From: a virus
Taxonomy: Duplodnaviria > Heunggongvirae > Uroviricota > Caudoviricetes
Reading direction: 5' to 3' (one strand)
Length of the DNA: 64,000 nucleotides
IMG/VR virus record: IMGVR_UViG_3300027749_005140
Location: 1-64,000 of that record
Below the pieces are notes generated by a model. That model was not told the origin of the DNA. It saw only the letters and a list, made by a program, of their open reading frames with translations, and ran no database searches. Shown here piece after piece: positions 17,868 through 64,000 of the stretch. The position numbers were made by a program, and so were the translations under genes. How positions within the stretch are numbered: position 1 is the first letter of the stretch; every line of letters starts with the position of its first letter.

Positions 17868-17947
17868 TTTATGATTTTTGATTTTTTAGTATATATTAAA
17901 TTGTCAGTTTTCTTTAATGGTTTATTTGTTATTTAAAATAAATTTTG

Positions 17948-17955
17948 TATATTTG
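17948..17955 (+). promoter_or_regulatory. Bacteroidetes-type -7 promoter box TAnnTTTG
   Basis: tatatttg 17 nt upstream of the ligase start codon. Confidence 0.45.
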
Positions 17956-17971
17956 TAGAAATAAATTATTT

Positions 17972-29467: not shown

Positions 29468-29475
29468 TACTTTTG
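29468..29475 (+). promoter_or_regulatory. -7 promoter box TAnnTTTG of leader/tRNA module 1
   Basis: tacttttg followed by conserved AAAAAGAGAGAATAAACTTTTAATATATA 5' UTR element. Confidence 0.5.
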
Positions 29476-29533: not shown

Positions 29534-29644
29534 ATGAGAACAAATTCAATACATACAAGCTTTAGTAAGTCGTTCAAGTGGTTTAGCCACAAGTTCGGAT
29601 GTATGAGTATGTCGTTCTCAAAAGAAGATGTTATTGTAGGATAA
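29534..29644 (+). CDS. leader peptide 1 (36 aa) of tRNA array 1
   Basis: MRTNSIHTSFSKSFKWFSHKFGCMSMSFSKEDVIVG; Lys/Phe/Trp/His codons mirror the downstream tRNAs. Confidence 0.45.
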   Translation: MRTNSIHTSFSKSFKWFSHKFGCMSMSFSKEDVIVG

Positions 29645-29674
29645 TGTCATAAAAGAGAATAAAACATAAACGTA

Positions 29675-29707
29675 AACCCGAACTTAAAATTAAGTTCGGG
29701 TTTTTTT
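29675..29707 (+). terminator. rho-independent terminator/attenuator 1
   Basis: aaacccgaactt aaaatt aagttcggg + ttttttt. Confidence 0.7.
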
Positions 29708-29955: not shown

Positions 29956-30044
29956 GGTGTTTGTAACCGGTAAAGGCAGCCGACCAGATTGTGAATCTGG
30001 AATGAATTAATTTTCTAATGCGGGTTCGAATCCCGTCTCACACC
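29956..30044 (+). tRNA. tRNA-His-like (anticodon GTG) with G-1 and expanded variable region
   Basis: Extra 5' G, anticodon loop ttgtgaa, T-arm gcggg ttcgaat cccgt; 19-nt variable region and two acceptor mismatches. Possibly degenerate. Confidence 0.35.
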
Positions 30045-30062
30045 CTAAATTCTCCCTCTAAA

Positions 30063-30195: not shown

Positions 30196-31233
30196 ATGAT
30201 AAGTTGTAAATTTTGTAAAAAAGTATATATAGGACGTAATAAAAATAAAGATGTTTTAATACATGAGTCCCATTGTATTCTAAATACAGATAGAGTACCA
30301 TATATATGTAATATATGTGATATGGAGTTTGATAAAAGACATTCTTTAATAGGACATAAAAGTCATTGCGGTAATTTAAAAGTTAGGAAAAAACGGATTA
30401 CAAAAGAGAAAGTAATTAAAATACACAAATGTAAATACTGTGATTCAATATTCGAAAATGGTTATAAATTGGGCGGACATGTATCACATTGTGATAGAGA
30501 TCCAGAATATGAAACTAAGAGGAGAAAAATGTGTGATAATATCTCTTTTCTTAATAAAGGAAAGAAATTATCAGATGAAACTAGAAAAAAAATATCAAAT
30601 AGTAGAAGAGAATATTTAAAAAATAATCCAGATAAAGTTCCCTATCTATTAAACCATAGTAGAAATGAATCATATCCTGAGAAATACTTTACTGATGTTT
30701 TTTTAGATAGAAATATTAGTGTAATAAAATCTTACAGAATTGGATTATATGAATTAGATTTTTGTATTTTAGATAAAAAAATAGATATAGAAATCGATGG
30801 TGGTCAACACTATTTAGATAATAAAATTATTGAAAGTGATAAAAGAAGAAATAAATATCTAGAAGATTTAGGTTGGGATATAATTAGAATAAAATGGAGT
30901 GATTATCAATTGTTGGATAAAGATTCTAAAAGAGAATTTATTGATAATATAATCTATTACATAAATGGTCTGGTAAAAACTAAACCAACATTTGAAATAT
31001 TAGATAATAAAAATTATTGTAAATGTGGTATAGAAATATACAAATGTTCTAAAATGTGTTCTAAATGTGATTCATTTAGACAAAGAAAAGTTGAAAGACC
31101 TTCATTAGAGCAAATTTTAAAAGATATAAAAGAAACAAACTATGTCTTGACCGGTAAAAAATATGGTGTTAGTGATAACACTATAAGAAAGTGGATAAGA
31201 CAATATAATGCGGATTTAGCTGAGACGGTTTAG
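30196..31233 (+). CDS. homing-endonuclease-like protein: 3x C2H2 zinc fingers + DUF559/Vsr-like PD-(D/E)xK nuclease + C-terminal HTH
   Basis: CxxC..HxxxH x3; YELDF..IDIEIDGGQHY..D.RR..L..GWDIIRIKW core; stop codon lies inside the D-loop of the following tRNA. Confidence 0.55.
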   Translation: MISCKFCKKVYIGRNKNKDVLIHESHCILNTDRVPYICNICDMEFDKRHSLIGHKSHCGNLKVRKKRITKEKVIKIHKCKYCDSIFENGYKLGGHVSHCDRDPEYETKRRKMCDNISFLNKGKKLSDETRKKISNSRREYLKNNPDKVPYLLNHSRNESYPEKYFTDVFLDRNISVIKSYRIGLYELDFCILDKKIDIEIDGGQHYLDNKIIESDKRRNKYLEDLGWDIIRIKWSDYQLLDKDSKREFIDNIIYYINGLVKTKPTFEILDNKNYCKCGIEIYKCSKMCSKCDSFRQRKVERPSLEQILKDIKETNYVLTGKKYGVSDNTIRKWIRQYNADLAETV

Positions 31234-31281
31234 CGTATGGTTGAAAGCCATAAGAGGTCAATTCGATTTTGACAATCCGCA
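31210..31281 (+). tRNA. tRNA-Phe (anticodon GAA), second gene
   Basis: Acceptor gcggatt/aatccgc, loop ttgaaag, T-arm gtcaa ttcgatt ttgac; 5' 24 nt overlap the endonuclease ORF. Confidence 0.5.
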
Positions 31282-31285
31282 CAAA

Positions 31286-31422
31286 TAGAAAGTAGCTCAA
31301 TTGGTAGAGCACGTAATCATACTTAGTCAGTCTTTCTCTAAGAAACTCTCTTAGTAGCAATGAAATAAGTTACTTCGCTCTGTTAAAGCCGTGGTTGTGG
31401 GTTCGAGTCCCACCTTTCTATC
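31286..31422 (+). tRNA. tRNA-like gene with ~65-nt internal insertion
   Basis: Perfect acceptor tagaaag/ctttcta, canonical D-arm tagctcaattggtagagc and T-arm gtggg ttcgagt cccac, but 87 nt between D- and T-arms. Confidence 0.3.
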
Positions 31423-31464: not shown

Positions 31465-31542
31465 ATGAAAACAATTATCACAACATCGTCAAGTTCGTCT
31501 AGTCGCTCAAGTAATTTGAGGGAGGTTCTGTTGTGCTCATAA
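31465..31542 (+). CDS. leader peptide 5 (25 aa), Ser/Arg-rich
   Basis: MKTIITTSSSSSSRSSNLREVLLCS; upstream of tRNA-Arg and three tRNA-Ser. Confidence 0.45.
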   Translation: MKTIITTSSSSSSRSSNLREVLLCS

Positions 31543-31564
31543 TTGATATAAAAAATTAGTATGA

Positions 31565-31609
31565 AACCCACAGACTTCAAAGTTTGTGGGTCTTTTGTTT
31601 TTAATTGGT
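31565..31609 (+). terminator. rho-independent terminator/attenuator 5
   Basis: aaacccacagact tcaa agtttgtgggtc + ttttgttttt. Confidence 0.65.
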
Positions 31610-37413: not shown

Positions 37414-38118
37414 ATGAAAATGAAAATGAATTTAGAAAAATTTAACTGGGGGTGGATGTATACAGAAGATGAGTCACATAAAAATCACATCATTTACGAA
37501 ATATTTGAAAGTAAAATATATGAAAAAATATTTGAGGTAGAATCTGGAGATATAGTGTTAGATGTAGGTGCCAGTATTGGTCCATTCACATATTCAATTT
37601 TAGATAAGAAACCTAAACACATATATTGTTTAGAACCAAGTGAATTACAGTTTCCAACTTTAATATCAAATACAGTAGGTCATCCAGTAACACCTATTTT
37701 AAAGGGTATTTCAAATATAAATTCATACGTTGATACCGAATTTCTTCATAAATTGAATTTACTTTTAGGTAATGATGAATCAAAAATGGAAGGCATTACA
37801 TTCAAAAAATTAAGACAAGTTTATAACTTAGAAAAAATTGACTTTTTAAAAACCGATTGTGAAGGTGGTGAATATGATATTTTTAATGAAGAAAATTTTG
37901 AATTTATTAAAAATAATGTTAAGAAAATATCAGGTGAGTGGCATTTAGGAAATACTGAGCTTAAAGAAAAATTCAGATACTTTAGAGACAATTACCTAGT
38001 TCAATTTGATAAAATAGAAGTATTCTCTGTAGATAATATTGATATTAAGTGGGACTTATGGAACGATCACTTTATTGATTATTACACCGAAATATTAATT
38101 CATATAGATAATCGTTAA
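37414..38118 (+). CDS. FkbM-family SAM-dependent methyltransferase
   Basis: VLDVGASIGPFT motif I and DFLKTDCEGGEYDIF typical of FkbM-family MTases. Confidence 0.55.
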   Translation: MKMKMNLEKFNWGWMYTEDESHKNHIIYEIFESKIYEKIFEVESGDIVLDVGASIGPFTYSILDKKPKHIYCLEPSELQFPTLISNTVGHPVTPILKGISNINSYVDTEFLHKLNLLLGNDESKMEGITFKKLRQVYNLEKIDFLKTDCEGGEYDIFNEENFEFIKNNVKKISGEWHLGNTELKEKFRYFRDNYLVQFDKIEVFSVDNIDIKWDLWNDHFIDYYTEILIHIDNR

Positions 38119-38181
38119 AAATATTTCAAAAATATCAAAAGGGAGAAAAACTTTTTAATATATAGAACTATAAACATATAT

Positions 38182-38251
38182 CGCGTTAAAGTGTAAAGGT
38201 TGCATGAGACTTTCATAAGGTCTACGGGGTGGTTCGAATCCACGCTACGCT
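38182..38251 (+). tRNA. tRNA-like, anticodon CAT (poorly folding, possibly degenerate)
   Basis: Anticodon arm agact ttcataa ggtct and T-loop ggttcgaatcc; acceptor and D stems weak. Confidence 0.3.
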
Positions 38252-38298
38252 ACAAAAGAGATAGGTAACGATTTAGATACAAGTCTCAAAAAATATAT

Positions 38299-38371
38299 CG
38301 CGGGATAGAGCAGTAGGCAGCTCGTGTGGCTCATAACCATAAGGTCGGAGGTTCGAGTCCTTCTCCCGCTA
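38299..38371 (+). tRNA. tRNA-Met/Ile2-like (anticodon CAT) with C1:U72 mismatch
   Basis: Acceptor cgcggga/tcccgct, D-arm gagcagtaggcagctc, stem tgtgg/ccata, loop ctcataa, T-arm ggagg ttcgagt ccttc. Confidence 0.55.
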
Positions 38372-38420
38372 CTAAAAGAATAAAAAATTAAAAAAGATTT
38401 GGTGGTTTAAAAACTTATCG

Positions 38421-38428
38421 TATCTTTG
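38421..38428 (+). promoter_or_regulatory. -7 promoter box TAnnTTTG of leader/tRNA module 3
   Basis: tatctttg upstream of leader ORF 3. Confidence 0.45.
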
Positions 38429-38496
38429 TACTCACAAGATGAGAGTCACATAAGTGACTAGAAGAATTAAAAACAACAATTTAAAAAATAGAAAAA

Positions 38497-38598
38497 ATGA
38501 CAACAATTACTAACATAACAATAGCTATCGAAGCCATAGGCGGGTATGAAGCGGGGTATATTATACCATCGGTCAGAAGCGTTATGTCTATAAAGTAA
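38497..38598 (+). CDS. leader peptide 3 (33 aa), Ile/Thr/Gly/Glu/Tyr/Ala-rich
   Basis: MTTITNITIAIEAIGGYEAGYIIPSVRSVMSIK; resembles thr-operon leader; codons ATA, GAA, GGC/GGG, TAT, GCN match the downstream tRNAs. Confidence 0.45.
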   Translation: MTTITNITIAIEAIGGYEAGYIIPSVRSVMSIK

Positions 38599-38627
38599 TG
38601 AGTTGAAAAAAACATTATTATATAACA

Positions 38628-38667
38628 AACCCAATCTGACTTAAAAATCAGATTGGGTTTTTTTATT
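38628..38667 (+). terminator. rho-independent terminator/attenuator 3
   Basis: aacccaatctga cttaaaaa tcagattgggtt + tttttt. Confidence 0.7.
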
Positions 38668-38682
38668 GAATTAAAAGTACAA

Positions 38683-38767
38683 GGGAGTACGCCGGAGTTG
38701 GAGAGCCGGAGCGGTCTGTAACACCGTTGGCATTACGCCTGAGTAGGTTCGAGTCCTACTACTCTCA
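38683..38767 (+). tRNA. tRNA-Tyr (anticodon GTA), class II
   Basis: Acceptor gggagta/tactctc, stem gcggt/accgt, loop ctgtaac, variable arm, T-arm gtagg ttcgagt cctac. Confidence 0.6.
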
Positions 38768-38773
38768 CAAAAT

Positions 38774-38841
38774 AAAAGTGACTATGTGCGGGTCGAAAGA
38801 CTTGAAAAGCCAACCGAAATAGTCTAACGTGGTCACTTTTT
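38774..38841 (+). other. extended imperfect hairpin flanked by A-run and T-run
   Basis: aaaagtgactat ... atagtc taacgt ggtcactttttt; not a tRNA (no T-loop). Confidence 0.3.
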
Positions 38842-38848
38842 AGAATAT

Positions 38849-38921
38849 GGTGTATTCGTCTAGTGGTAAGGATTACGCTTTTTCAAAGCGGAGGACGTCG
38901 GTTCGAATCCGACATACACTA
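38849..38921 (+). tRNA. tRNA-Glu (anticodon TTC)
   Basis: Acceptor ggtgtat/atacact, D-arm tcgtctagtggtaaggat (Glu-like), loop ttttcaa, T-arm gtcgg ttcgaat ccgac. Confidence 0.5.
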
Positions 38922-38925
38922 CAAA

Positions 38926-38987
38926 TGTAAGTAGAGCTCCGGTGACTTCTACCTAACCGGGCATTGTGCTTGAGTAGAAGACTTACA
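38926..38987 (+). other. nested hairpin element between tRNA genes
   Basis: tgtaagt..cttctac..gtagaag..acttaca nested inverted repeats. Confidence 0.25.
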
Positions 38988-38991
38988 AAAT

Positions 38992-39066
38992 GCTGCTATC
39001 GTCTAACGGTAGGACAACATCTTCTCAAGGTGTGAGATACGGGTTCGATCCCCGTTAGCAGCACCA
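38992..39066 (+). tRNA. tRNA-Glu (anticodon CTC) with encoded CCA
   Basis: Perfect acceptor gctgcta/tagcagc, loop ttctcaa, T-arm acggg ttcgatc cccgt, followed by a cca. Confidence 0.55.
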
Positions 39067-39182
39067 AACAGATACTTGAGTGCAAGCAAGTTATAGTATC
39101 AGTCGTTAGGTCCTTGCAGACAGTGAACGGTGGTCCGAATGTCATTATTCGGTGGTGGATACCAGGCAACTCCATCATATAT

Positions 39183-39254
39183 GATCCGGTCTTCTAATGG
39201 TCAGGAAGCAAGGTTTTCATCCTTGTAATCAGGGTTCGATTCCCTGTCGGATTA
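39183..39254 (+). tRNA. tRNA-like, anticodon TTC (Glu-like; G1:U72 and G7:U66 wobbles)
   Basis: Acceptor gatccgg/tcggatt, stem caagg/ccttg, loop ttttcat, T-arm caggg ttcgatt ccctg. Confidence 0.4.
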
Positions 39255-39264
39255 CAAAAAAAAT

Positions 39265-39338
39265 TGGTAAGTAGCTTAGACGGTAGAAGCATCTGTCTTA
39301 TACACAGAAGATAGTGGGTTCGATACCCACCTTACCAA
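39265..39338 (+). tRNA. tRNA-Ile (anticodon TAT)
   Basis: Acceptor tggtaag/cttacca, stem tctgt/acaga, loop cttatac, T-arm gtggg ttcgata cccac. Confidence 0.55.
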
Positions 39339-39345
39339 CAAAATC

Positions 39346-39419
39346 GCGGGAGTCGTATAATGGCTCGATTATGCTGGCTTTCCACGTCAGAGACGAGGGT
39401 TCGATTCCCTTCTCCCGCA
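39346..39419 (+). tRNA. tRNA-Gly (anticodon TCC)
   Basis: Acceptor gcgggag/ctcccgc, stem ctggc/gtcag, loop tttccac, T-arm gaggg ttcgatt ccctt. Confidence 0.55.
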
Positions 39420-39428
39420 CCGCATAAT

Positions 39429-39502
39429 GCAAATGTATATCAATTGGTAGATAGTCTCGTTGCCAACGAGAAGGCTTGCGGGTTCGAGCCCCGTCATTTG
39501 CT
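39429..39502 (+). tRNA. tRNA-Gly (anticodon GCC)
   Basis: Acceptor gcaaatg/catttgc, stem tctcg/cgaga, loop ttgccaa. Confidence 0.6.
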
Positions 39503-39600
39503 CAGTAGAAGTGGTTTAAGTTATAGAAATCTCTATATCTAAGACGTTAGATGTAAATTTTTATACACCACTTTAATTATAAAGATAGTAGTAATATAAA

Positions 39601-39700
39601 GCGTTACTTCGTATTCAAACGACTATTATAGGTTCGAATCCTATTGTCCGCACAAATAATTAAATTGCGGATATAGTGTAATGGTAGCACAGTAAAATAC
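39601..39700 (+). other. two orphan tRNA halves: a 3' half (T-arm + acceptor 3') lying upstream of a 5' half (acceptor 5' + D-arm); their acceptor strands are mutually complementary
   Basis: ...ataggttcgaatcctat tgtccgc a (39628-39652) and gcggata ta gtgtaatggtagcac (39667-39690); tgtccgc pairs perfectly with gcggata. Confidence 0.25.
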
Positions 39701-39728
39701 GCTTAATAAACTTTCTCTATCTTATTTT

Positions 39729-39800
39729 GGGGCTATCGTATAATGGCTATTACACAGGGTTTGCAACTCTGATATTCCGGATCGTCCCCGGATAGCTCCA
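39729..39800 (+). tRNA. tRNA-Ala-like (anticodon TGC) with non-canonical T-loop
   Basis: Acceptor ggggcta/tagctcc (G3:U70 present), stem caggg/ctctg, loop tttgcaa, T-arm tccgg atcgtcc ccgga. Confidence 0.45.
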
Positions 39801-39977
39801 CAAAAAATAAAAAATAGATATGAAAACTAAAGAACAGTCGCTGGACGCATTTTAGTCACAGAAGAATATAAATCTTACTGTGACGGTAATAAAACAGAAA
39901 GAATTAAAAGATCATTAGTAAAAAATGGTTCACGTAATGATAGAAAATTACAAAAATATTCTGATAAATTTAACAAA

Positions 39978-54464: not shown

Positions 54465-56057
54465 ATGAGTTTACAAAGACAAATTACTCGAAAATTAGAA
54501 AGAGTCATTGCTGATAAAGATTGGACTTCTTTAGAAGGTATTCAAAAATACCTAACAAAAATTATTACAAAACCAGACAATTTAATTCTTTGTTCTGATG
54601 CTTACAAATACTCACACCATAAATTCTATGGTGATGAAATGACTAAGATGATTTCTTATATGGAATCTCGTGGTGGTAAATTCTCAGAAACTTTATTCTA
54701 TGGTTTACAAATCATTATCAAACAATACTTAGAAGGTATCGCTATTACCAAAGAAGAAGTAGATGAAGCAAATGATTACTTAGCTTCTAAACTAGGTGTG
54801 TTCGGTAGAGAAGATGTATTTGATCGTTCTAAGTTTGATTATATCGTTGATAAATATGATGGTAAACTTCCTATCAGTATTAAAGCTGTACCAGAAGGAA
54901 CCGTTGTAAATACAAAAAATGTACTTTTCATTATTGAAAGTTTAGATGAAAAATGTGCTTGGTTGACAAACTTCTTAGAAAGTATCTTACTTCAAGTTTG
55001 GTATCCAATTACTGTTGCAACCCTTTCAAGAGAAGTTAGAAAAATTGTAACTAATTCATTTTTAGATTGTACTTCTTATGATGATAAAACAATCAATTTC
55101 TTAGTTGATTTTGTTTTAAATGATTTTGGTTTCAGAGGTGTATCATCTGTACAATCAGCTAAAATTGGTGGGTCCGCACATCTTGTCAACTTCTTAGGTT
55201 CAGACACTGTAATCGCTTCTAAATTGATTAGAGACGTATATAATACTGAACGAATCTATGGGTTATCAATTCCTGCAACCGAACACTCTATTATGACGCT
55301 TAAAGGTAAAGAAGGAGAGTTAGAACTAATGACGAGAGTGTTAAAAACATTCCCTACTGGATTAGTAGCGTGTGTATCTGATTCATATAACATCTTTAGA
55401 GCTTGTTCTCAATACTGGGGAACTGAGTTGAGAGATTTAGTTCTTTCAAGACCTGCAACACCTGGAAATCAATTAGTTATTAGACCTGACTCTGGCCACG
55501 TTTTAAGAACATTGAAAGAGATTTTTGATATATTATTTGACAAGTTTGGATATACGGTAAATGAAAAAGGTTACAAAGTACTTCCACCACAAGTTAGAGT
55601 AATTCAAGGTGACGGTGTCAACCTAGAATCAATTGGTGAAATCTATACAATGTTAAAATCAGAAGGTATTTCTCCAGAGAACTTAGCATTGGGTATGGGT
55701 GGTAAATTATTACAAGCGGATATAAACCGTGATACAAATAACTTTGCAACTAAAGCTTGTTTCGCAGTGGTTGATGGTCAAGAAAGAAATGTAGTTAAAT
55801 CTCCTACAGAAATGGATGCAGATGGTAACATTATGAAATCTTTCAAAAAATCTAAACAAGGTCGTTTGAAACTTGTTAAGAATGATGATGGTACTTACAG
55901 AACTGTTACTTCAATGGATGCAGACTTTGATACTGTTAAAGACGAGTTAGTTGAAGTATTTAGAATGGGAGAAATTACTAAAGAGTGGAACTTTGATGAG
56001 ATTAGACAAAGAGCTGCAGTTTTAGTAGAACAAGAAACAGAAGAATTGATAGCATAA
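54465..56057 (+). CDS. nadV: nicotinamide phosphoribosyltransferase
   Basis: LCSDAYKYSHHKFYG and GMGGKLLQ..NRDT motifs, ~530 aa. Confidence 0.85.
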   Translation: MSLQRQITRKLERVIADKDWTSLEGIQKYLTKIITKPDNLILCSDAYKYSHHKFYGDEMTKMISYMESRGGKFSETLFYGLQIIIKQYLEGIAITKEEVDEANDYLASKLGVFGREDVFDRSKFDYIVDKYDGKLPISIKAVPEGTVVNTKNVLFIIESLDEKCAWLTNFLESILLQVWYPITVATLSREVRKIVTNSFLDCTSYDDKTINFLVDFVLNDFGFRGVSSVQSAKIGGSAHLVNFLGSDTVIASKLIRDVYNTERIYGLSIPATEHSIMTLKGKEGELELMTRVLKTFPTGLVACVSDSYNIFRACSQYWGTELRDLVLSRPATPGNQLVIRPDSGHVLRTLKEIFDILFDKFGYTVNEKGYKVLPPQVRVIQGDGVNLESIGEIYTMLKSEGISPENLALGMGGKLLQADINRDTNNFATKACFAVVDGQERNVVKSPTEMDADGNIMKSFKKSKQGRLKLVKNDDGTYRTVTSMDADFDTVKDELVEVFRMGEITKEWNFDEIRQRAAVLVEQETEELIA

Positions 56058-59720: not shown

Positions 59721-60068
59721 ATGATATATAGTTTTATGGAAAACCTTACTATCACGTACATCAAGACACATGGACAAACTTTGGAAATGTGGTCTGCAAC
59801 CGATACAAAAATAAACCTTTCGGTGGGTCATATTTGTATGAATGTAGAGAAAGATAACAGGATAAAATTCCTAGATGCTTGGGTACACGATGATTATCGT
59901 AGAAGAGGAATATATCGAAAACTATGGGAAACTAGATGGGAATATGTAAATAAAGAGTATAAAGGATATACAATATATGCTTGGTGTAAAGAAACATCAT
60001 TACCATTACTTTTAGAGAAGGAATTCACTCCAGGTGAAGTAGTTACTTATGTTGAGAAAAAGATTTAA
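59721..60068 (+). CDS. GNAT-family N-acetyltransferase
   Basis: HDDYRRRGIYRKLWE resembles GNAT motif A. Confidence 0.4.
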   Translation: MIYSFMENLTITYIKTHGQTLEMWSATDTKINLSVGHICMNVEKDNRIKFLDAWVHDDYRRRGIYRKLWETRWEYVNKEYKGYTIYAWCKETSLPLLLEKEFTPGEVVTYVEKKI

Positions 60069-60097
60069 ACTTTTTTAAAAAGTATAATATAAGTTGC

Positions 60098-60283
60098 ATG
60101 ATGAGACCCTTAAAATCAGTAGCCAAGTACTACTCAAAAGGATTTTTTTTAGCATATGGTTTATTAGCAATAATAAATCTACCAGAGTTTAACTTCTCTA
60201 CATTACTTGAACAATCACTTATGTTTGGCATAGGTATGGCACTTCTAATACACGGATTTGAAGACTTCTATAAAACAAAATAA
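60098..60283 (+). CDS. small membrane protein
   Basis: 61 aa with a hydrophobic helix. Confidence 0.3.
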   Translation: MMRPLKSVAKYYSKGFFLAYGLLAIINLPEFNFSTLLEQSLMFGIGMALLIHGFEDFYKTK

Positions 60284-60286
60284 ATT

Positions 60287-60463
60287 ATGGCAAATAAAGA
60301 CAGAAACTTTATAATTAGAATATCAGAAAAATTATTGGAAGAGTTTCAAGAGTTTTGTGATGATAATTCAATGAATGCTTCTAAAAGAATTAGAAAGTAT
60401 ATTGAGAACGATGTTGATGCGTGGAAGAAAAGAAAATTACAACAACAAAATAATCAAAAATAA
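60287..60463 (+). CDS. ribbon-helix-helix (CopG/Arc-like) small DNA-binding protein (58 aa)
   Basis: NFIIRISEKLLEEFQEFCDDNSMNASKRIRKYIE fits the RHH beta-strand + two-helix pattern; stop overlaps the next ATG (TAATG); not in the ORF track. Confidence 0.35.
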   Translation: MANKDRNFIIRISEKLLEEFQEFCDDNSMNASKRIRKYIENDVDAWKKRKLQQQNNQK

Positions 60464-61194
60464 TGGGTAATATACTTAAATTTATACTTGAATACCAAGA
60501 CTATATAGAAAATATAGAAAACTCCGATAAAGATGATTATATTTTTAATGAGATATTAAAAAGAAGCTATAATAGCAGATTAAAAATATCGGAAGGTCTC
60601 ATTAAAACACATCCCGTAAAAAAATCTGAAGATATTCTAAAAAGAAGATTTCCTGAACTAAATATAGAAATAGACGAAGATGATGAAATTTATATCTACA
60701 ATCTTAATGATAAAATAAGTAAATATCTACCCATAATAACCAACCTTGGATATTTTATATCACAAGTTACAATAGATGGTGATAATTGGCAACATAATGG
60801 TATAAATGATAATTTGTATACAAAAGGTATTTGTATAGAAGCAAAATATGATTATGAAGTAGAAATACCAAGTACTCTTTATCATGCATCACCAATTAAA
60901 TTAAAAAATAAAATATTAAAAAATGGCCTATCACCAAGATCTGGAAATAAAATAGCTAAACATCCAGAAAGAATATATTTAACCGATAATATCAATATCG
61001 CAATACAATTTGGAAAATATCTTAAAAATGAAGAAAATAATGAATGGTATAAAAATGGATTTTGTATCTATTCAATAGACGGTAAAGGTATATCAAACCT
61101 GTATTCAGATGTTAATCTTAGACAAGGTGGTTTTTATACTATGAACTATATAAAACCAGAAAACATAAAACTTATCTGGGATAATAGAAATTAG
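60463..61194 (+). CDS. putative ADP-ribosyltransferase-fold / Tpt1(KptA)-like protein
   Basis: LYHASPIKLKNKILKNGLSPRSGNKIAKHPERIYL resembles the Tpt1/H-Y-E ART core (L-Y-H-G-T...I...GL.P..R.HVHL). Confidence 0.25.
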   Translation: MGNILKFILEYQDYIENIENSDKDDYIFNEILKRSYNSRLKISEGLIKTHPVKKSEDILKRRFPELNIEIDEDDEIYIYNLNDKISKYLPIITNLGYFISQVTIDGDNWQHNGINDNLYTKGICIEAKYDYEVEIPSTLYHASPIKLKNKILKNGLSPRSGNKIAKHPERIYLTDNINIAIQFGKYLKNEENNEWYKNGFCIYSIDGKGISNLYSDVNLRQGGFYTMNYIKPENIKLIWDNRN

Positions 61195-61245
61195 CGGAAA
61201 TAAGAAATAAAAACAAAAAAATTAGGTAAAGCAGAAAACTTTTAT

Positions 61246-61253
61246 TACTTTTG
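61246..61253 (+). promoter_or_regulatory. -7 promoter box TAnnTTTG of leader/tRNA module 2
   Basis: tacttttg + conserved AAACAAAAAGAGAGAATAA 5' UTR element. Confidence 0.5.
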
Positions 61254-61309
61254 TACTATAAAAATAACAAATAAACAAAAAGAGAGAATAACATCTTAAT
61301 ATATACAAT

Positions 61310-61390
61310 AATGAAAACAACTAATCTAAATATTAACTTAACGCTGAATGTCTTATGTCTAAGACGTGAACCGGGTTTTGCCTTATTTAG
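61310..61390 (+). CDS. leader peptide 2 (26 aa), Leu/Asn/Arg-rich
   Basis: MKTTNLNINLTLNVLCLRREPGFALI; codons CTA, TTA x3, CTG, CTT, AGA, CGT match the downstream Arg(TCT) and Leu tRNAs. Confidence 0.45.
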
Positions 61391-61439
61391 AGCAAATGAT
61401 AATGTTATTGGATAACATATTATAACTAAATATACAAAC

Positions 61440-61472
61440 AAAACCCGAAATCTAAAAGTTTCGGGTTTTTTT
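61440..61472 (+). terminator. rho-independent terminator/attenuator 2
   Basis: aaacccgaaa tctaaaa gtttcgggtt + ttttttg. Confidence 0.7.
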
Positions 61473-61492
61473 GTGGAAAAAAATAAATAATT

Positions 61493-61565
61493 GGCTCTAT
61501 GATGTAATGGATTAGCATATAAATCTTCTAAATTTATCGTATAGGTTCGAATCCTATTAGAGTCA
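61493..61565 (+). tRNA. tRNA-Arg (anticodon TCT)
   Basis: Acceptor ggctcta/tagagtc, D-stem atgt/gcat, stem taaat/attta, loop cttctaa, T-arm atagg ttcgaat cctat. Confidence 0.6.
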
Positions 61566-61571
61566 CAAAAA

Positions 61572-61645
61572 GTCTGGGTGGTGAAACTGGAAAACACAAC
61601 AAGTTTAAGCCTTGTAAGCTGCGGGTTCGACTCCCGTCCCAGATA
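61572..61645 (+). tRNA. tRNA-Leu-like (anticodon TAA) with class-I architecture (short variable loop)
   Basis: Acceptor gtctggg/cccagat, stem acaag/cttgt, loop tttaagc, T-arm gcggg ttcgact cccgt. Confidence 0.45.
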
Positions 61646-61651
61646 CAAATT

Positions 61652-61733
61652 GCAGAGGTGATGTAATGTAACCATGCTGGTCTAAGAAGCCAGTGTCCGA
61701 AAGGACGTGCGGGTTCGAGTCCCGCTCTCGGTA
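61652..61733 (+). tRNA. tRNA-Leu (anticodon AAG by hand fold), class II
   Basis: Acceptor gcagagg/tctcggt (one mismatch), stem ctggt/gccag, loop ctaagaa, variable arm gtcc gaaa ggac. Confidence 0.45.
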
Positions 61734-61735
61734 CA

Positions 61736-62002
61736 ATGAAAGAAATAGATTATATACAGTACACATCATATACATTATTATCAAGTGGTAATGTATTTAA
61801 GGTAAATTCAGTTATGCCTTTACAAAGTTTAGACAAACACTTGAATGAAAGTACAAACTTAATTATGTTTGTAGTTCATAATATAAAGTGTAATGATAAA
61901 GAAGTAATGGTTTATAATAGAGATCTATTTAGATTTACATATGGATCAAAAGAATGTCCTGAAATGATTATGAAAATGAAACATTCACATATATTAGAAT
62001 AA
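61736..62002 (+). CDS. hypothetical protein embedded in tRNA array 3
   Basis: 88-aa ORF between tRNA genes. Confidence 0.3.
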   Translation: MKEIDYIQYTSYTLLSSGNVFKVNSVMPLQSLDKHLNESTNLIMFVVHNIKCNDKEVMVYNRDLFRFTYGSKECPEMIMKMKHSHILE

Positions 62003-62004
62003 TG

Positions 62005-62086
62005 TCGGAGTGATGAAATGGTAGACGTGCTAGCCTCAAAAGTTAGTGTCCAAGTGACGTGTGGGTTCGACTCCCACCTTCGATAC
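62005..62086 (+). tRNA. tRNA-Leu (anticodon CAA), class II
   Basis: Acceptor gtcggag/cttcgat, stem ctagc/gttag, loop ctcaaaa, variable arm gtcc aagt gac. Confidence 0.6.
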
Positions 62087-62095
62087 AAAAATATG

Positions 62096-62178
62096 CAGGT
62101 ATGGGGGAATGGTAGACCCGCTGGCCTTAGAAGTCAGTGCTGAAATATGCGTGTCGGTTCGAGTCCGACTACCTGTAC
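62096..62178 (+). tRNA. tRNA-Leu (anticodon TAG), class II
   Basis: Acceptor gcaggta/tacctgt, stem ctggc/gtcag, loop cttagaa. Confidence 0.6.
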
Positions 62179-62220
62179 AAAATAATACTAATAAAATTAG
62201 GTAGATTAAAAAACTAATAG

Positions 62221-62228
62221 TATATTTG
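62221..62228 (+). promoter_or_regulatory. -7 promoter box TAnnTTTG of leader/tRNA module 4
   Basis: tatatttg followed by perfect hairpin ctctgta ataa tacagag (62231-62248). Confidence 0.5.
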
Positions 62229-62314
62229 TACTCTGTAATAATACAGAGAGTGTTTTACACTACTATAAATAAAGATAAACAAAAAGGGACAATAAAAATT
62301 TAATATATAATATA

Positions 62315-62404
62315 ATGAAAACAAATACTGTAAATATTAATGTGATTACGATTACGAATTGTGTGAATAACACGACTTCGGGTAAGCGATTATGTATAGT
62401 ATAA
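62315..62404 (+). CDS. leader peptide 4 (29 aa), Asn/Thr/Val/Ile/Cys-rich
   Basis: MKTNTVNINVITITNCVNNTTSGKRLCIV; AAT/AAC, ACN, GTA/GTG, ATT, TGT codons match the downstream Asn, Thr, Val, Ile, Cys tRNAs. Confidence 0.45.
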   Translation: MKTNTVNINVITITNCVNNTTSGKRLCIV

Positions 62405-62430
62405 ACTCATATATTATATACAATTTATAA

Positions 62431-62466
62431 AGACCCGAACTCAAAAAGTTTGGGTCTTTTCTTTTA
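62431..62466 (+). terminator. rho-independent terminator/attenuator 4
   Basis: aagacccgaac tcaaaa agtttgggtctt + ttcttttat. Confidence 0.7.
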
Positions 62467-62471
62467 TATAT

Positions 62472-62542
62472 TCTTCTATAGTGAAATGGTATCACGTCTG
62501 ACTGTTAATCAGTTATTCCAGGTTCGAGCCCTGGTGGAAGAG
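62472..62542 (+). tRNA. tRNA-Asn (anticodon GTT)
   Basis: Acceptor tcttcta/tggaaga, D-stem gtga/tcac, loop ctgttaa, T-arm ccagg ttcgagc cctgg. Confidence 0.6.
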
Positions 62543-62551
62543 CAAAAAAAT

Positions 62552-62639
62552 TACTGGGTTGCCATAGCCAGGTCGAATGGTTCGGACTGTTAATCCGATG
62601 AGCATCGCTCCACCGTGGGTTCGAATCCCACCCCAGTAG
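62552..62639 (+). tRNA. tRNA-like, anticodon GTT, with class-II-length variable hairpin (atypical)
   Basis: Perfect acceptor tactggg/cccagta, stem tcgga/tccga, loop ctgttaa, variable hairpin gagc atc gctc, T-arm gtggg ttcgaat cccac. Confidence 0.35.
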
Positions 62640-62647
62640 CAATACAT

Positions 62648-62728
62648 TGGCACATACCAGCCCAACCTGATAAGTTGGAGAACTGTAGCGGTACGTTGAA
62701 AACGTGGGTTCGAATCCCTCTGTGCCAA
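62648..62728 (+). tRNA. tRNA-Ile-like (anticodon GAT) with atypical architecture
   Basis: Acceptor tggcaca/tgtgcca, anticodon arm ccaac ctgataa gttgg (loop identical to bacterial tRNA-Ile); D region too short and 26 nt between anticodon and T arms. Confidence 0.35.
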
Positions 62729-62735
62729 CAAAAAT

Positions 62736-62810
62736 AGTCCTATAGCTCAGTTGGTTCAGAGCGATTGTTTAACACACAATAGGTCGTCGGTTCGAATCCG
62801 TCTAGGACTA
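62736..62810 (+). tRNA. tRNA-Val (anticodon AAC by hand fold)
   Basis: Perfect acceptor agtccta/taggact, D-arm tagctcagttggttcagagc, stem attgt/acaat, loop ttaacac. Confidence 0.5.
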
Positions 62811-62847
62811 CTGAAAGTTGTTTTGTGAAACAAAACACTACAAAATC

Positions 62848-62919
62848 AGTTCCTTAGCTCAGCGGGAGAGCGGTTGTTTTACATGCAACAGGTCGTGGGT
62901 TCGATCCCCACAGGAACTA
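62848..62919 (+). tRNA. tRNA-Val (anticodon TAC)
   Basis: Perfect acceptor agttcct/aggaact, stem gttgt/gcaac, loop tttacat, T-arm gtggg ttcgatc cccac. Confidence 0.6.
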
Positions 62920-62924
62920 CAAAA

Positions 62925-62998
62925 ATACCTTGGTCGGTATATCAATTGGTTTAGATTATCACGCTGATACCGTGAAGGTTGCGAGTTCGAGTCTCGCA
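62925..62998 (+). other. degenerate tRNA-like element (T-arm only)
   Basis: gcgag ttcgagt ctcgc T-arm and cggtat/ataccg pairing, but no anticodon arm or acceptor 3' strand. Confidence 0.25.
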
Positions 62999-63007
62999 CA
63001 AAAATAT

Positions 63008-63095
63008 GGCATAGTGTCTGAGTGGTCGAAAGATGCGGTCTGCAAAACCGTAATGATTAAGTTCATCATCGTAGGTTCAAATCCTACCTATGCTT
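63008..63095 (+). tRNA. tRNA-Cys (anticodon GCA) with expanded variable hairpin
   Basis: Acceptor ggcatag/ctatgct, stem gcggt/accgt, loop ctgcaaa, variable atga ttaagt tcat, T-arm gtagg ttcaaat cctac. Confidence 0.5.
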
Positions 63096-63102
63096 CAATA
63101 AT

Positions 63103-63176
63103 GGCGCGGTGGCCGAGTGGCACGTAGGCGGTGGATTGCAAACTCACACACACTGGTTCGATCCCAGTTCGCGCCT
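63103..63176 (+). tRNA. tRNA-like, anticodon GCA (second Cys-like, irregular D-arm)
   Basis: Acceptor ggcgcgg/tcgcgcc, loop ttgcaaa, T-arm actgg ttcgatc ccagt. Confidence 0.4.
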
Positions 63177-63183
63177 CAAAAAT

Positions 63184-63256
63184 GCCGATATAGCTCAATA
63201 GGTAGAGTGCCAACTTGGTAGGTTGGAGGTTAAGGGTTCGATTCCCTTTATCGGAT
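63184..63256 (+). tRNA. tRNA-Thr (anticodon GGT)
   Basis: Acceptor gccgata/tatcgga (1:72 mismatch), stem ccaac/gttgg, loop ttggtag, T-arm aaggg ttcgatt ccctt. Confidence 0.55.
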
Positions 63257-63265
63257 CAATAAAAT

Positions 63266-63346
63266 GCTAGTGTGGCCCAGTGGCGACGGCACTTCCCTTG
63301 TAAGGAAGAAATAAAAACACCGCAGGTTCGAGTCCTGTCACTAGCT
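63266..63346 (+). tRNA. tRNA-Thr (anticodon TGT) with 13-nt A-rich variable region
   Basis: Perfect acceptor gctagtg/cactagc, stem cttcc/ggaag, loop cttgtaa, T-arm gcagg ttcgagt cctgt. Confidence 0.55.
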
Positions 63347-63351
63347 CAACA

Positions 63352-63386
63352 AAAAGACTTCTTTTAATTAAGAAGTCTTTTTTATT
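63352..63386 (+). terminator. rho-independent terminator
   Basis: aaaagacttctt ttaatt aagaagtctttt + tttatttt. Confidence 0.7.
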
Positions 63387-63400
63387 TTAAACTAAAACCG

Positions 63401-63408
63401 TATCTTTG
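63401..63408 (+). promoter_or_regulatory. -7 promoter box TAnnTTTG
   Basis: tatctttg 24 nt upstream of the ATG at 63433. Confidence 0.4.
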
Positions 63409-63432
63409 TATAGAATAATAAATACTACTATT

Positions 63433-63906
63433 ATGAAAGATATAAAACCTCGTTGCTTCGTGGATATGGATGGCGTCCTATGTGATTTTTTCGGAGCATT
63501 CAAAGATGTTCGTCAGAAAGATCCAAACTTTAAATATCCTCAATCCAGAATAGGGTTCTTCAAAAATCTTGAACCAATGCCAAACGCAATCGAATCTTTT
63601 AATAAATTAAAAGAACATTATGACGTTTGGATTTTAACACGTCCTTCATTTAAAAACATTAGTTGTTTTAACGAGAAAGCCGAGTGGGTTTTAGAACATT
63701 TAGGTTTTGACGTATTAGAAAAAACGATTATGTGTGGTGATAAATCTTTATTGAAAGGTGACTTCCTTATTGACGACAATGGTCAGAATGGACAACCTGA
63801 GTTTGAAGGTGAGTGGATACAATTCGGAACTAAACCTTTTGAAAATTGGCAAGATGTCATAAATTATCTATTAAAATCAGATTCCCATATAGATACAACA
63901 TTATAA
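63433..63906 (+). CDS. HAD-family 5'(3')-deoxyribonucleotidase-like protein
   Basis: CFVDMDGVLCDF (HAD motif I, D-x-D-G-V-L), typical of NT5C-like nucleotidases; start revised to the Met after the promoter box. Confidence 0.6.
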   Translation: MKDIKPRCFVDMDGVLCDFFGAFKDVRQKDPNFKYPQSRIGFFKNLEPMPNAIESFNKLKEHYDVWILTRPSFKNISCFNEKAEWVLEHLGFDVLEKTIMCGDKSLLKGDFLIDDNGQNGQPEFEGEWIQFGTKPFENWQDVINYLLKSDSHIDTTL

Positions 63907-64000
63907 CCTATTGATTTCAAATAGGACTCTTTTATCAAAGTTTTTTCATATAAATCTCCAAATTTTATGTTATTTACATAATTTATATCATTTGGATTAT

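Follow-up and report, generated by a model that had tools for sequence, protein, structure and literature searches.

Leader-peptide attenuation has been the textbook model for the control of amino-acid biosynthesis for some 50 years. In the classical attenuators (trpL, hisL, leuL, thrL, and pheL), a short codon-rich leader is translated, the 5' arm of a terminator either forms its hairpin or is captured by an antiterminator, and it is the position of the ribosome that decides between the two. This work concerns a comparable arrangement in a virus, located in 64,000 nucleotides of phage DNA (Caudoviricetes; positions 1 to 64,000 of IMG/VR record IMGVR_UViG_3300027749_005140), a stretch that is referred to here as the window. 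At positions 61240-62180, a small open reading frame (ORF) rich in leucine and arginine codons lies ahead of an intrinsic terminator and of five transfer RNA (tRNA) genes, one for Arg and four for Leu. This locus, module 2, is one of five leader/terminator/tRNA modules in the window. It displays five of the seven features that define a leader-peptide attenuator, namely a short ORF between promoter and genes, cognate codons in this ORF, an intrinsic terminator, an antiterminator that excludes it, and a fitting placement of the codons. The probability that the modules are functional ribosome-mediated (leader-peptide) attenuators of tRNA transcription is put at roughly 80%, and the best explanation of the sequences is that a family of such attenuators together gates the tRNA arrays of this phage.

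The phage modules differ from the classical attenuators in that they would regulate tRNAs rather than enzymes, so that the molecule sensed and the product belong to the same class and the loop closes directly. They are also encoded by a virus, each of their leaders carries 2-7 codon families, and the 5' strand of the antiterminator lies inside the ORF, which runs 5-15 codons past this strand. A single leader that responds to several amino acids by OR-logic is shared with the multivalent attenuators of ilvGMEDA and ilvBN (Leu/Val/Ile) and of thr (Thr/Ile), but in the phage modules up to seven residues are involved, the multivalency mirrors the tRNA content downstream and changes when arrays split or merge, and the targets are RNA genes. 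A parallel is pheST, the phenylalanyl-tRNA synthetase of E. coli, where part of the translation machinery is regulated through a leader peptide (pheM) that senses the decoding step cognate to itself; it differs in being a protein-coding synthetase operon for a single amino acid on a bacterial chromosome. T-boxes likewise couple tRNA status to the choice between terminator and antiterminator upstream of translation-related genes, but they bind uncharged tRNA directly, through the specifier loop and the T-box sequence and without translation, whereas the signal in the phage modules is frame-dependent.

At the Rfam gathering thresholds only tRNAs were detected, and none of the leader families (Leu_leader, Thr_leader, Trp_leader, and His_leader). 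The best scores below threshold (E <= 10) were 26.9 bits for Thr_leader, against a gathering score of 55, and 16 for Trp_leader, against 41; these matches lie for the most part on the terminator hairpin and the leader tail. The T-box family (RF00230) gave no match in 61200-62480 and 38100-39850 even at E <= 10. The element would work like a leader-peptide attenuator and lies outside all curated leader families. The tRNA clusters of phages such as T4, T5, the mycobacteriophages, and the huge phages are thought to sustain late translation or to replace depleted host tRNAs. The tRNAs of huge phages are discussed by Al-Shayeb et al. 2020 (PMC7162821), where the words "leader" and "attenuat" are absent. 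Full-text literature searches returned no paper on leader-peptide or attenuator control of tRNA genes, whether in phages or in cells. To our knowledge, no case of leader-peptide attenuation controlling tRNA genes has been described, and as far as can be told the tRNA-gene target, the viral origin, and the array-matched multi-codon leaders are new.

Anatomy and alternative folds of module 2

The Leu/Arg-rich leader ahead of tRNA-Arg(TCT) and four tRNA-Leu genes had been proposed in a sequence-only reading of this DNA, and was borne out by the ORF at 61311-61415 and by ARAGORN and Rfam calls at 61493-62178 (Table 1). The leader encodes the 34-amino-acid peptide MKTTNLNINLTLNVLCLRREPGFALFRANDNVIG; the tail given in that reading ("...GFALI") is wrong. 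The Leu codons are, in order, cta, tta, ctg, tta, cta, and tta, and the Arg codons aga, cgt, and aga. From the codons listed earlier, CTA (twice), CTG (once), and CGT (once) are thus present, while TTA occurs three times instead of twice, AGA occurs twice, and CTT is absent. These errors in peptide tail and codon list leave the earlier interpretation unaffected, and the case for a putative attenuator is strengthened by comparative data (co-varying modules and compensatory changes). Among the downstream tRNAs, Leu(UAG) reads cta and ctg, Leu(UAA) reads tta, and Arg(UCU) reads aga. Part of the codon run folds into a hairpin, P1, which is a possible pause hairpin.

The leader is preceded by a -7 promoter element of the Bacteroidota type, and the same TAnnTTTG element stands upstream of modules at 29468, 38421, and 62221. 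In its full form, TTTG-N18-21-TAnnTTTG, the Bacteroidota consensus was counted 12 times in the window, where 3.1 copies would be expected; none of 100 shuffles contained as many. A scan for sigma-70 promoters was uninformative (29 sites against 32 expected); it is the Bacteroidota consensus that fits. A conserved box, AAAAAGAGAGAATAA-N4-TTAATATATA, lies ahead of the leader ATG and may be a translation-initiation region or a second, phage-type promoter. TTAATATATA alone was discarded as a specific marker, since allowing one mismatch gave 50 sites where 50 were expected; specificity requires the longer box.

The leader segment ccgggttt (61371-78) is complementary to aaacccg (61440-46) in the 5' arm of the terminator, as the sequence-only reading had pointed out, and the antiterminator-like arrangement that it proposed was recovered by RNAfold. 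The full leader transcript adopts the terminator fold (-39.6 kcal/mol, z = -4.7), while the transcript cut before the terminator 3' arm adopts the antiterminator (-28.0 kcal/mol, z = -3.95). In the latter, CGGGUUUUG pairs with CAAAACCCG (61372-80 with 61438-46) and UAUUUAG with CUAAAUA (61384-90 with 61425-31), enclosing the hairpin 61396-61423. The best duplex between leader and terminator arm has -11.5 kcal/mol against a shuffled mean of -4.6, and 0 of 200 shuffles was as good. In all five modules of the window, the terminator is found in the full fold and the antiterminator in the truncated fold, the latter being formed from an in-ORF strand just past the codon run. The terminator hairpin of module 2 has about -14 to -15 kcal/mol, and the hairpins of the modules that were scored have -14 to -21, apart from one excluded false positive; the consensus scan places the module 2 terminator on the - strand because A- and U-tracts flank the hairpin.

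The effect of a translating ribosome was modeled as a block of 28 unpaired nucleotides for each position of the A site, with the transcript ending at the terminator loop, and the probability that the terminator 5' arm is paired was calculated. With the A site on codons 1 to ~17, which span the regulatory codons, the model predicts that the arm is sequestered in all five modules (P 0.57-0.76). Once the A site is on codons ~18-27 and the antiterminator strand is covered by the ribosome, the arm is predicted to be freed (P 0.01-0.2). In this model, the regulatory codons would be placed such that a stalled ribosome favors the antiterminator.

Co-variation of leaders, arrays, and terminators

Relatives of the modules were collected by scanning IMG/VR with the motif TTAATATATA-N4-6-ATGARAACA. 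This returned at least 117 loci, of which about two thirds were chance matches without tRNAs, and loci were kept only when an ORF was followed by a terminator and then by tRNAs. Among the matches listed, at least about 40 IMG/VR loci have the same design (those cited below carry L numbers), and two further scans and relaxed detection added more. Modules are also present, unannotated, in the huge phages LR745206.1 (634,780 bp) and LR756502.1 (642,428 bp) of GenBank.

The composition of the leaders follows that of the arrays downstream. In the window, the true pairing of the five leaders with the five arrays gives 74 cognate leader residues against a permuted mean of 34.8, and is the single best of the 120 permutations. 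Across 35 unique leaders, 424 of 1037 residues are cognate, compared with 200.6 +/- 21 when arrays are permuted (z = 10.7). When each of seven types is represented by a single leader, none of the other 5040 possible assignments does as well as the true one. All 20 amino acids have a higher mean frequency in leaders that have a tRNA for them downstream, and the match extends to the rare residues Trp, His, Cys, Gln, and Pro. It also extends to the choice of codon: AGA and CGY accompany Arg(UCU) and Arg(ACG), respectively, and ATA and ATT accompany Ile(UAU) and Ile(GAU). With nested and near-identical leaders removed first, AGR and CGN codons stand at 8:1 in the leaders of Arg(tct) arrays and at 3:10 in those of Arg(acg/gcg/tcg) arrays (Fisher p = 0.0075). 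For Ile, the ratio of ATA to ATY is 9:4 in leaders ahead of Ile(tat) and 1:7 in those ahead of Ile(gat) (p = 0.024). The proportion of cognate triplets is 35.9% in the frame of the ORF and 14.2% and 14.0% in the two alternative frames. These frames hold 108 and 128 stops, whereas the ORF itself stays open in every relative. The indels seen in the aligned coding part of the leaders are multiples of 3.

For module 2 itself, Leu and Arg account for 7 of the 18 codons at positions 2-19, against 11.9% expected (P = 3e-3), and 17 of these 18 codons specify amino acids of its own or of the next array (P = 3e-6). That module 2 also senses the amino acids of the next array is no more than suggested (P = 0.02-0.08), since Thr, Asn, and Ile are a generic feature of the N-terminus of every leader; for the equivalent claim on module 1 and Ser, 9 of 35 residues are Ser or Arg (P = 0.012). 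Since the modules are related to one another, none of these P values is over independent events, and more weight is carried by the number of different specificities, taken with the cases in which leaders split and merge.

New specificities among the relatives include MKTLINILVNPQPQVVVDQDQDPD (NPQPQ..DQDQDPD), which stands ahead of Asp and Pro tRNAs, MTTFTQYQQQQQ (QYQQQQQ), ahead of three Gln tRNAs, MKLINTSSSSSR, ahead of Arg, Ser, and Ser, and MNTLIYIGYIAEGGYEAG, ahead of three Glu, two Tyr, and Gly. Homologues of the module 2 leader are found in L031, L092, L019, and L122, and in merged form in L002, L010, L028, L120, and LR745206.1. Where arrays are merged, the leaders are merged as well (L010, L118, and LR745206.1). 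The merged leader of L010, MKTMNLNMNMNTLTVVNNTLCIRR, precedes Ile, Asn, Arg, Leu, Val, Thr, and Met tRNAs, and that of LR745206.1, MTTMNLNMTMNLTLNVVNITLCNIR, precedes an array for N R R L N N V I T T V T L L L I. The reverse is seen in L120, where split leaders stand ahead of Glu/Tyr (MTTVTTYYYEAYEE, with YYYEAYEE) and of Ile(tat)/Gly (MKTLNITIAIIGGGAGAG, with ITIAIIGGGAGAG).

The terminator stems vary between lineages, and within the module 2 family the in-ORF strand changes along with the terminator arm. The pairs, given as in-ORF strand/terminator arm, are C-GGGUUUU/AAAACCC-G in the window (CGGGUUUU/AAAACCCG), U-GGGUUUU/AAAACCC-A in L019 (UGGGUUUU/AAAACCCA), UGA-GGGUUUU/AAAAACCC-UCA in L002 and L118 (L002: UGAGGGUUUU/AAAAACCCUCA), UCUGA-GGG/CCC-UCAGA in L010 (UCUGAGGG/CCCUCAGA), and GGUUC-GGG/CCC-GAACC in L028 and L120 (GGUUCGGG/CCCGAACC). 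Other leader types behave alike (AAGUUCGG/CCGAACUU, GAACUUGG/CCAAGUU, and GACUAACUG/CAGUUAGUC). Over all modules, cognate duplexes of leader and arm average -10.4 kcal/mol against -7.4 kcal/mol for non-cognate ones (Wilcoxon p = 3e-8). The residues that follow the codon run, PGFA, EGFH, MGFA, or SGCA, all encode xGGGUUx, which at the level of sequence points to an RNA constraint rather than a peptide function as their explanation.

Proposed mechanism and competing explanations

In the proposed mechanism, transcription would start at the Bacteroidota-type promoter (61246-53), and the 34-codon leader would be translated as the RNA polymerase advances. Should aminoacyl-tRNA for the Leu codons CUA, UUA, or CUG or for the Arg codon AGA (positions 6-18) be scarce, the ribosome would stall upstream of 61372, CGGGUUUUG and UAUUUAG would pair with CAAAACCCG and CUAAAUA, and the terminator 5' arm would be sequestered. 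The polymerase would then read into tRNA-Arg(UCU) and the four tRNA-Leu genes, and onward to the next attenuator, which would gate Asn, Ile, Val, Cys, and Thr tRNAs. With fast decoding, the ribosome would cover the antiterminator strand and the stop-codon hairpin, the terminator at 61440-72 would form, and the tRNA genes would be left untranscribed. For modules 1 and 2, termination would require that the ribosome melts the nested hairpin and stands between the two strands, a step that lies outside the occlusion model. In this way, the supply of tRNA would feed back negatively on its synthesis, several codon families being combined by OR-logic. The signal is likely to be decoding capacity, that is, the abundance or integrity of tRNA, because extra tRNA does not cure an amino-acid shortage.

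Several points weigh against this interpretation. Its support is wholly in silico, and the comparative set comes from a motif scan and consists of related phages, so that its statistics are not over independent events. All leaders share an MKT or MRT start rich in Thr, Asn, and Ile, which makes the match to Asn/Ile/Thr arrays partly generic. In the module 2 leader, the codon CGT (codon 19) is not read by Arg(UCU), and codons for Leu(CAA) (TTG) and for Leu(AAG) (CTT/CTC) are missing. The position of the Arg codons 18-19 is borderline, as a ribosome stalled there would partly mask the antiterminator strand. The poly-Ser and poly-Gln leaders are short, and their antiterminator complementarity is weak (p > 0.3). 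In modules 1 and 2, the ORF extends 10-14 codons beyond the antiterminator strand, so that a ribosome at the stop codon leaves this strand uncovered, and termination therefore depends on a kinetic or steric argument. Furthermore, a strong 1:2 anti-antiterminator was not found in module 2, where the full fold pairs 61325-33 weakly with 61384-91, and the occlusion model predicts that the leader, when untranslated, forms the antiterminator by default (P 0.57-0.73). With no clear anti-antiterminator found and read-through predicted for the untranslated state, the logic differs from trp-type superattenuation.

The default read-through of the untranslated leader would be accommodated by a switch of reverse direction, as in pyrBI, where efficient translation of the leader blocks the terminator hairpin and stalling leads to termination, so that tRNAs would be made only when translation works. 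Stalling on codons ~18-27 would leave the terminator arm exposed, and the Arg codons 18-19 as well as the Leu and Arg codons of the tail (25 and 27) fall in that zone. However, the stop codon is located 15-33 nucleotides upstream of the terminator 5' arm (25 in module 2), and a ribosome at the stop therefore cannot reach the hairpin. Moreover, most cognate codons lie upstream of the antiterminator strand, the in-ORF strand that co-varies with the terminator arm would have no role, and positive feedback on tRNA supply has no obvious use, which together make the reverse direction improbable. A second question is whether the same attenuator could respond to amino-acid starvation, coupling the tRNA output of the phage to host nutrition through uncharged tRNA. 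Classical trp and his attenuators do respond to charging, and a stalled ribosome cannot tell missing from uncharged tRNA. Nonetheless, more tRNA does not relieve an amino-acid shortage and the feedback loop would not close, while the leaders match the phage's own anticodons (ATA with Ile(UAU), AGA with Arg(UCU)), which points to decoding capacity and leaves starvation a quite improbable signal.

The frame dependence of the codon match bears on explanations that dispense with the ribosome. Leader RNA could bind tRNAs by codon-anticodon contact, in a T-box-like manner, and set the choice between terminator and antiterminator in this way; the output of the modules, their tRNA-related input, and the codon-anticodon specificity seen would all be accounted for. 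Yet no T-box or other Rfam family reaches its gathering score, cognate triplets are enriched only in the frame of the conserved ATG (35.9% against 14%), the ORF is open in all relatives with aligned indels that keep the frame, and each leader holds many different codons, unlike a single specifier. Direct binding of tRNA is thus very improbable. Equally little probability is given to the absence of any regulation, with chance ORFs or real micro-proteins as leaders, hairpins that end the upstream genes, and a codon match that is a by-product of AT-richness. AT-rich genomes are indeed rich in Asn, Ile, Lys, Leu, and Thr codons, and the leaders share a generic start. This account is opposed by the promoter that lies between the upstream gene and each leader, by the match of the rare residues Trp, His, Cys, Gln, and Pro and the permutation tests that reject chance, by the leaders that split and merge with their arrays, by the co-variation of antiterminator strand and terminator, and by the peptide after the codon run, which follows the RNA constraint (xGGGUUx).

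If the modules are leader-peptide attenuators as proposed, the sensor (codon decoding) and the product (the decoding tRNA) would form a direct, virus-encoded homeostatic loop. This would offer an answer to the questions of how tRNAs are regulated in phages that carry dozens of them and why they are grouped as they are, the text of a leader would predict which tRNAs are co-regulated, and phage tRNA arrays would be tied to tRNA-targeting host defences. The modules would also be natural modular sensors of tRNA levels, with many specificities, that are usable in synthetic biology. On a wider and tentative view, which we consider possible but rather unlikely, the multi-codon attenuators across the whole genome of these phages, among them the largest known (634-642 kb), would jointly monitor the decoding of all 20 amino acids, each switching on the array that runs short, and would amount to a virus-encoded sensor of tRNA depletion. 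Such a sensor would be an on-demand answer to the loss of host tRNAs through shut-off, codon-usage mismatch, or anticodon-nuclease defences, and nested attenuators (module 2 then 3; module 1 then the Ser/Arg module) would give hierarchical control.

Other modules, neighboring genes, and relatives

The coordinates of module 2, of the other four modules of the window, and of the GenBank loci (L125-L128 of the comparative set) are collected in Table 1.

Table 1. Position of the features of the leader/terminator/tRNA modules, in window coordinates unless an accession is given (nt, nucleotides)
Feature	Position	Strand	Sequence or remark
Module 2, -7 promoter element (TAnnTTTG, Bacteroidota-type)	61246..61253	+	TACTTTTG; conserved in relatives
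Module 2, box	61277..61305	+	AAAAAGAGAGAATAA-N4-TTAATATATA; ends 5 nt before leader ATG; alignment of five modules
Module 2, leader ORF	61311..61415	+	ATG start; 34 codons + TAA (61413-15); MKTTNLNINLTLNVLCLRREPGFALFRANDNVIG
Module 2, regulatory codon run (codons 6-19)	61326..61367	+	Leu cta/tta/ctg/tta/cta and Arg aga/cgt, among Asn, Ile, Thr, Val, Cys codons
Module 2, hairpin P1 (regulatory codons 13-19)	61348..61367	+	AUGUCUUA-UGUC-UAAGACGU; RNAfold; also in L019
Module 2, antiterminator 5' strand (inside ORF)	61372..61390	+	CGGGUUUUG (61372-80, codons 21-24) + UAUUUAG (61384-90)
Module 2, nested hairpin within antiterminator	61396..61423	+	holds leader stop codon (61413-15)
Module 2, antiterminator 3' strand	61425..61446	+	CUAAAUA (61425-31) + CAAAACCCG (61438-46, overlaps terminator 5' arm)
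Module 2, intrinsic terminator	61440..61472	+	stem 61440-51/61458-69, U7, U-tract to 61472
tRNA-Arg(UCU)	61493..61566	+	ARAGORN, Rfam
tRNA-Leu(UAA)	61572..61646	+	75 nt, without long variable arm; ARAGORN, Rfam
tRNA-Leu(AAG)	61652..61734	+	ARAGORN, Rfam
88-amino-acid ORF within Leu array	61736..62002	+	ORF list
tRNA-Leu(CAA)	62004..62086	+	ARAGORN, Rfam
tRNA-Leu(UAG)	62095..62178	+	ARAGORN, Rfam
Module 3, whole	62221..63382	+	
Module 3, promoter	62221-28	+	TATATTTG
Module 3, leader	62315-62404	+	MKTNTVNINVITITNCVNNTTSGKRLCIV
Module 3, attenuator terminator	62429-62460	+	
Module 3, tRNAs	62472-63347	+	Asn x2, Ile(GAU)-like, Val x2, Cys x2, Thr x2
Module 3, final terminator	63351-63382	+	
Module 1, leader	29534-29644	+	MRTNSIHTSFSKSFKWFSHKFGCMSMSFSKEDVIVG; span with terminator 29534..29707
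Module 1, terminator	29674-29707	+	then Lys, Trp, Phe, His, Lys, Phe tRNAs
Ser/Arg module, leader	31465-31542	+	MKTIITTSSSSSSRSSNLREVLLCS; span with terminator 31465..31596
Ser/Arg module, terminator	31566-31596	+	then Arg(ACG), Ser(UGA), Ser(GGA), Ser(GCU)
Tyr/Glu/Ile/Gly/Ala module, leader	38497-38598	+	MTTITNITIAIEAIGGYEAGYIIPSVRSVMSIK
Tyr/Glu/Ile/Gly/Ala module, terminator	38627-38664	+	then Tyr, Glu x3, Ile(UAU), Gly x2, Ala
LR745206.1 modules	342.3-344 kb, 365-369 kb, 387.7-390.3 kb		leader/terminator/tRNA
LR756502.1 module	372.9-376 kb		leader/terminator/tRNA

Between the array of module 2 and the promoter and leader of module 3 there is no strong terminator, only a weak terminator-like hairpin at 62231-62248, and read-through transcripts therefore probably run into the second attenuator. 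The operon of modules 2 and 3 ends at the terminator at 63351-82. Short hairpins directly follow the TAnnTTTG element at 62231-62248 and 38441-38456 (+), which places them at the predicted 5' ends of the transcripts; they are absent in modules 1 and 2.

The ORF of 88 amino acids that the sequence-only reading had placed between the Leu tRNAs exists. It is found at the same place in L092, with 90% amino-acid identity, is missing from L031, and is taken to be a small gene inserted into the tRNA array. Directly 5' of module 2, a protein of 243 amino acids is encoded at 60463-61194 (+), with exact copies in three metagenome contigs. Pfam and PHROG gave no family for either of these two, and a pattern search of IMG/VR gave no relative of the 243-amino-acid protein.

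The Ser tRNAs and Ile(gat) are called by ARAGORN at relaxed thresholds only; the tRNA model of Rfam additionally accepts one Ser tRNA and the Ile(gat)-like gene. At 62926-63000 (+), an Rfam tRNA match of 37 bits to a partial model (8-63) has no ARAGORN call; by eye, its anticodon loop carries GAT (Ile), and a canonical acceptor stem was not found. Three tRNAs have 89 nucleotides, namely tRNA-His (29957-30045), one tRNA-Asn (62552-62640), and one tRNA-Cys (63008-63096); related contigs have size variants similar to these and to the 75-nucleotide Leu(taa).

Within the Lys/Trp/Phe/His array, an ORF of 345 amino acids at 30196-31233 (+) carries REase_MTES_1575, DUF559, and NUMOD3 domains and is homing-endonuclease-like; its end overlaps the start of tRNA-Phe at 31210-31282. 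A tRNA-like gene follows at 31286-31422 (+), with a 56-nucleotide insertion after the anticodon loop; ARAGORN in intron mode reports the gene as an intron-bearing Met(cat). A possible intron-containing tRNA, it stands directly ahead of the Ser/Arg leader.

Two tRNAs with CAT anticodons lie within 38127-38372 (+), at 38182-38252 (below threshold, 24.7 bits) and 38299-38372. They are preceded by a copy of the box, AAAAGGGAGAAAAA-N-TTAATATATA (at 38155), without leader ORF and without terminator; these Met/initiator-type tRNAs therefore appear to be ungated, and the box itself may be a promoter. Inside the Tyr/Glu/Ile/Gly/Ala array there are spacers of 70-225 nucleotides (38769-38848, 38923-38991, 39067-39182, and 39504-39728, +) for which neither ARAGORN nor Rfam called a tRNA. 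Some of them show hairpins by eye, and they are candidates for degenerate tRNAs or other small RNAs.

Among the relatives, L022 (2140-2334; IMGVR_UViG_3300009692_000025) has an ORF of 64 codons with the same start motif, which precedes tRNAs for Pro, Gln, Asn, and Tyr and, about 1 kb further on, a series of 15 tRNAs with mixed specificities; the ORF may be a "generalist" leader or just a small gene. For the Glu/Tyr array at 365,267 of LR745206.1, no leader passed the filter. A candidate leader of L039 (-9927), MKTIITLIILHQ..., located 5' of Lys tRNAs, was rejected, having neither a terminator nor a codon match.

Megablast of 60000-64000 gave no match among deposited phages, and tblastn of a 721-amino-acid protein of the window retrieved only relatives below 30% identity. 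The Lys/Trp/Phe/His leader, the one type that was searched in 185,579 species genomes, gave a single match, which lies in a coding region without tRNAs and is due to chance; for this one leader type, cellular genomes gave no evidence of the system. The DNA of the window is also present in the freshwater-lake metagenomes 3300009151 and 3300010885 of the Joint Genome Institute (JGI). The phages of the module-bearing clade are from freshwater, reach up to 642 kb, and probably infect Bacteroidota. Other genes of the window encode a NAD-dependent DNA ligase (17945-19807), a nicotinamide phosphoribosyltransferase (54465-56057), and an NT5C-type deoxyribonucleotidase (63406-63906), a content that is consistent with a large phage genome.

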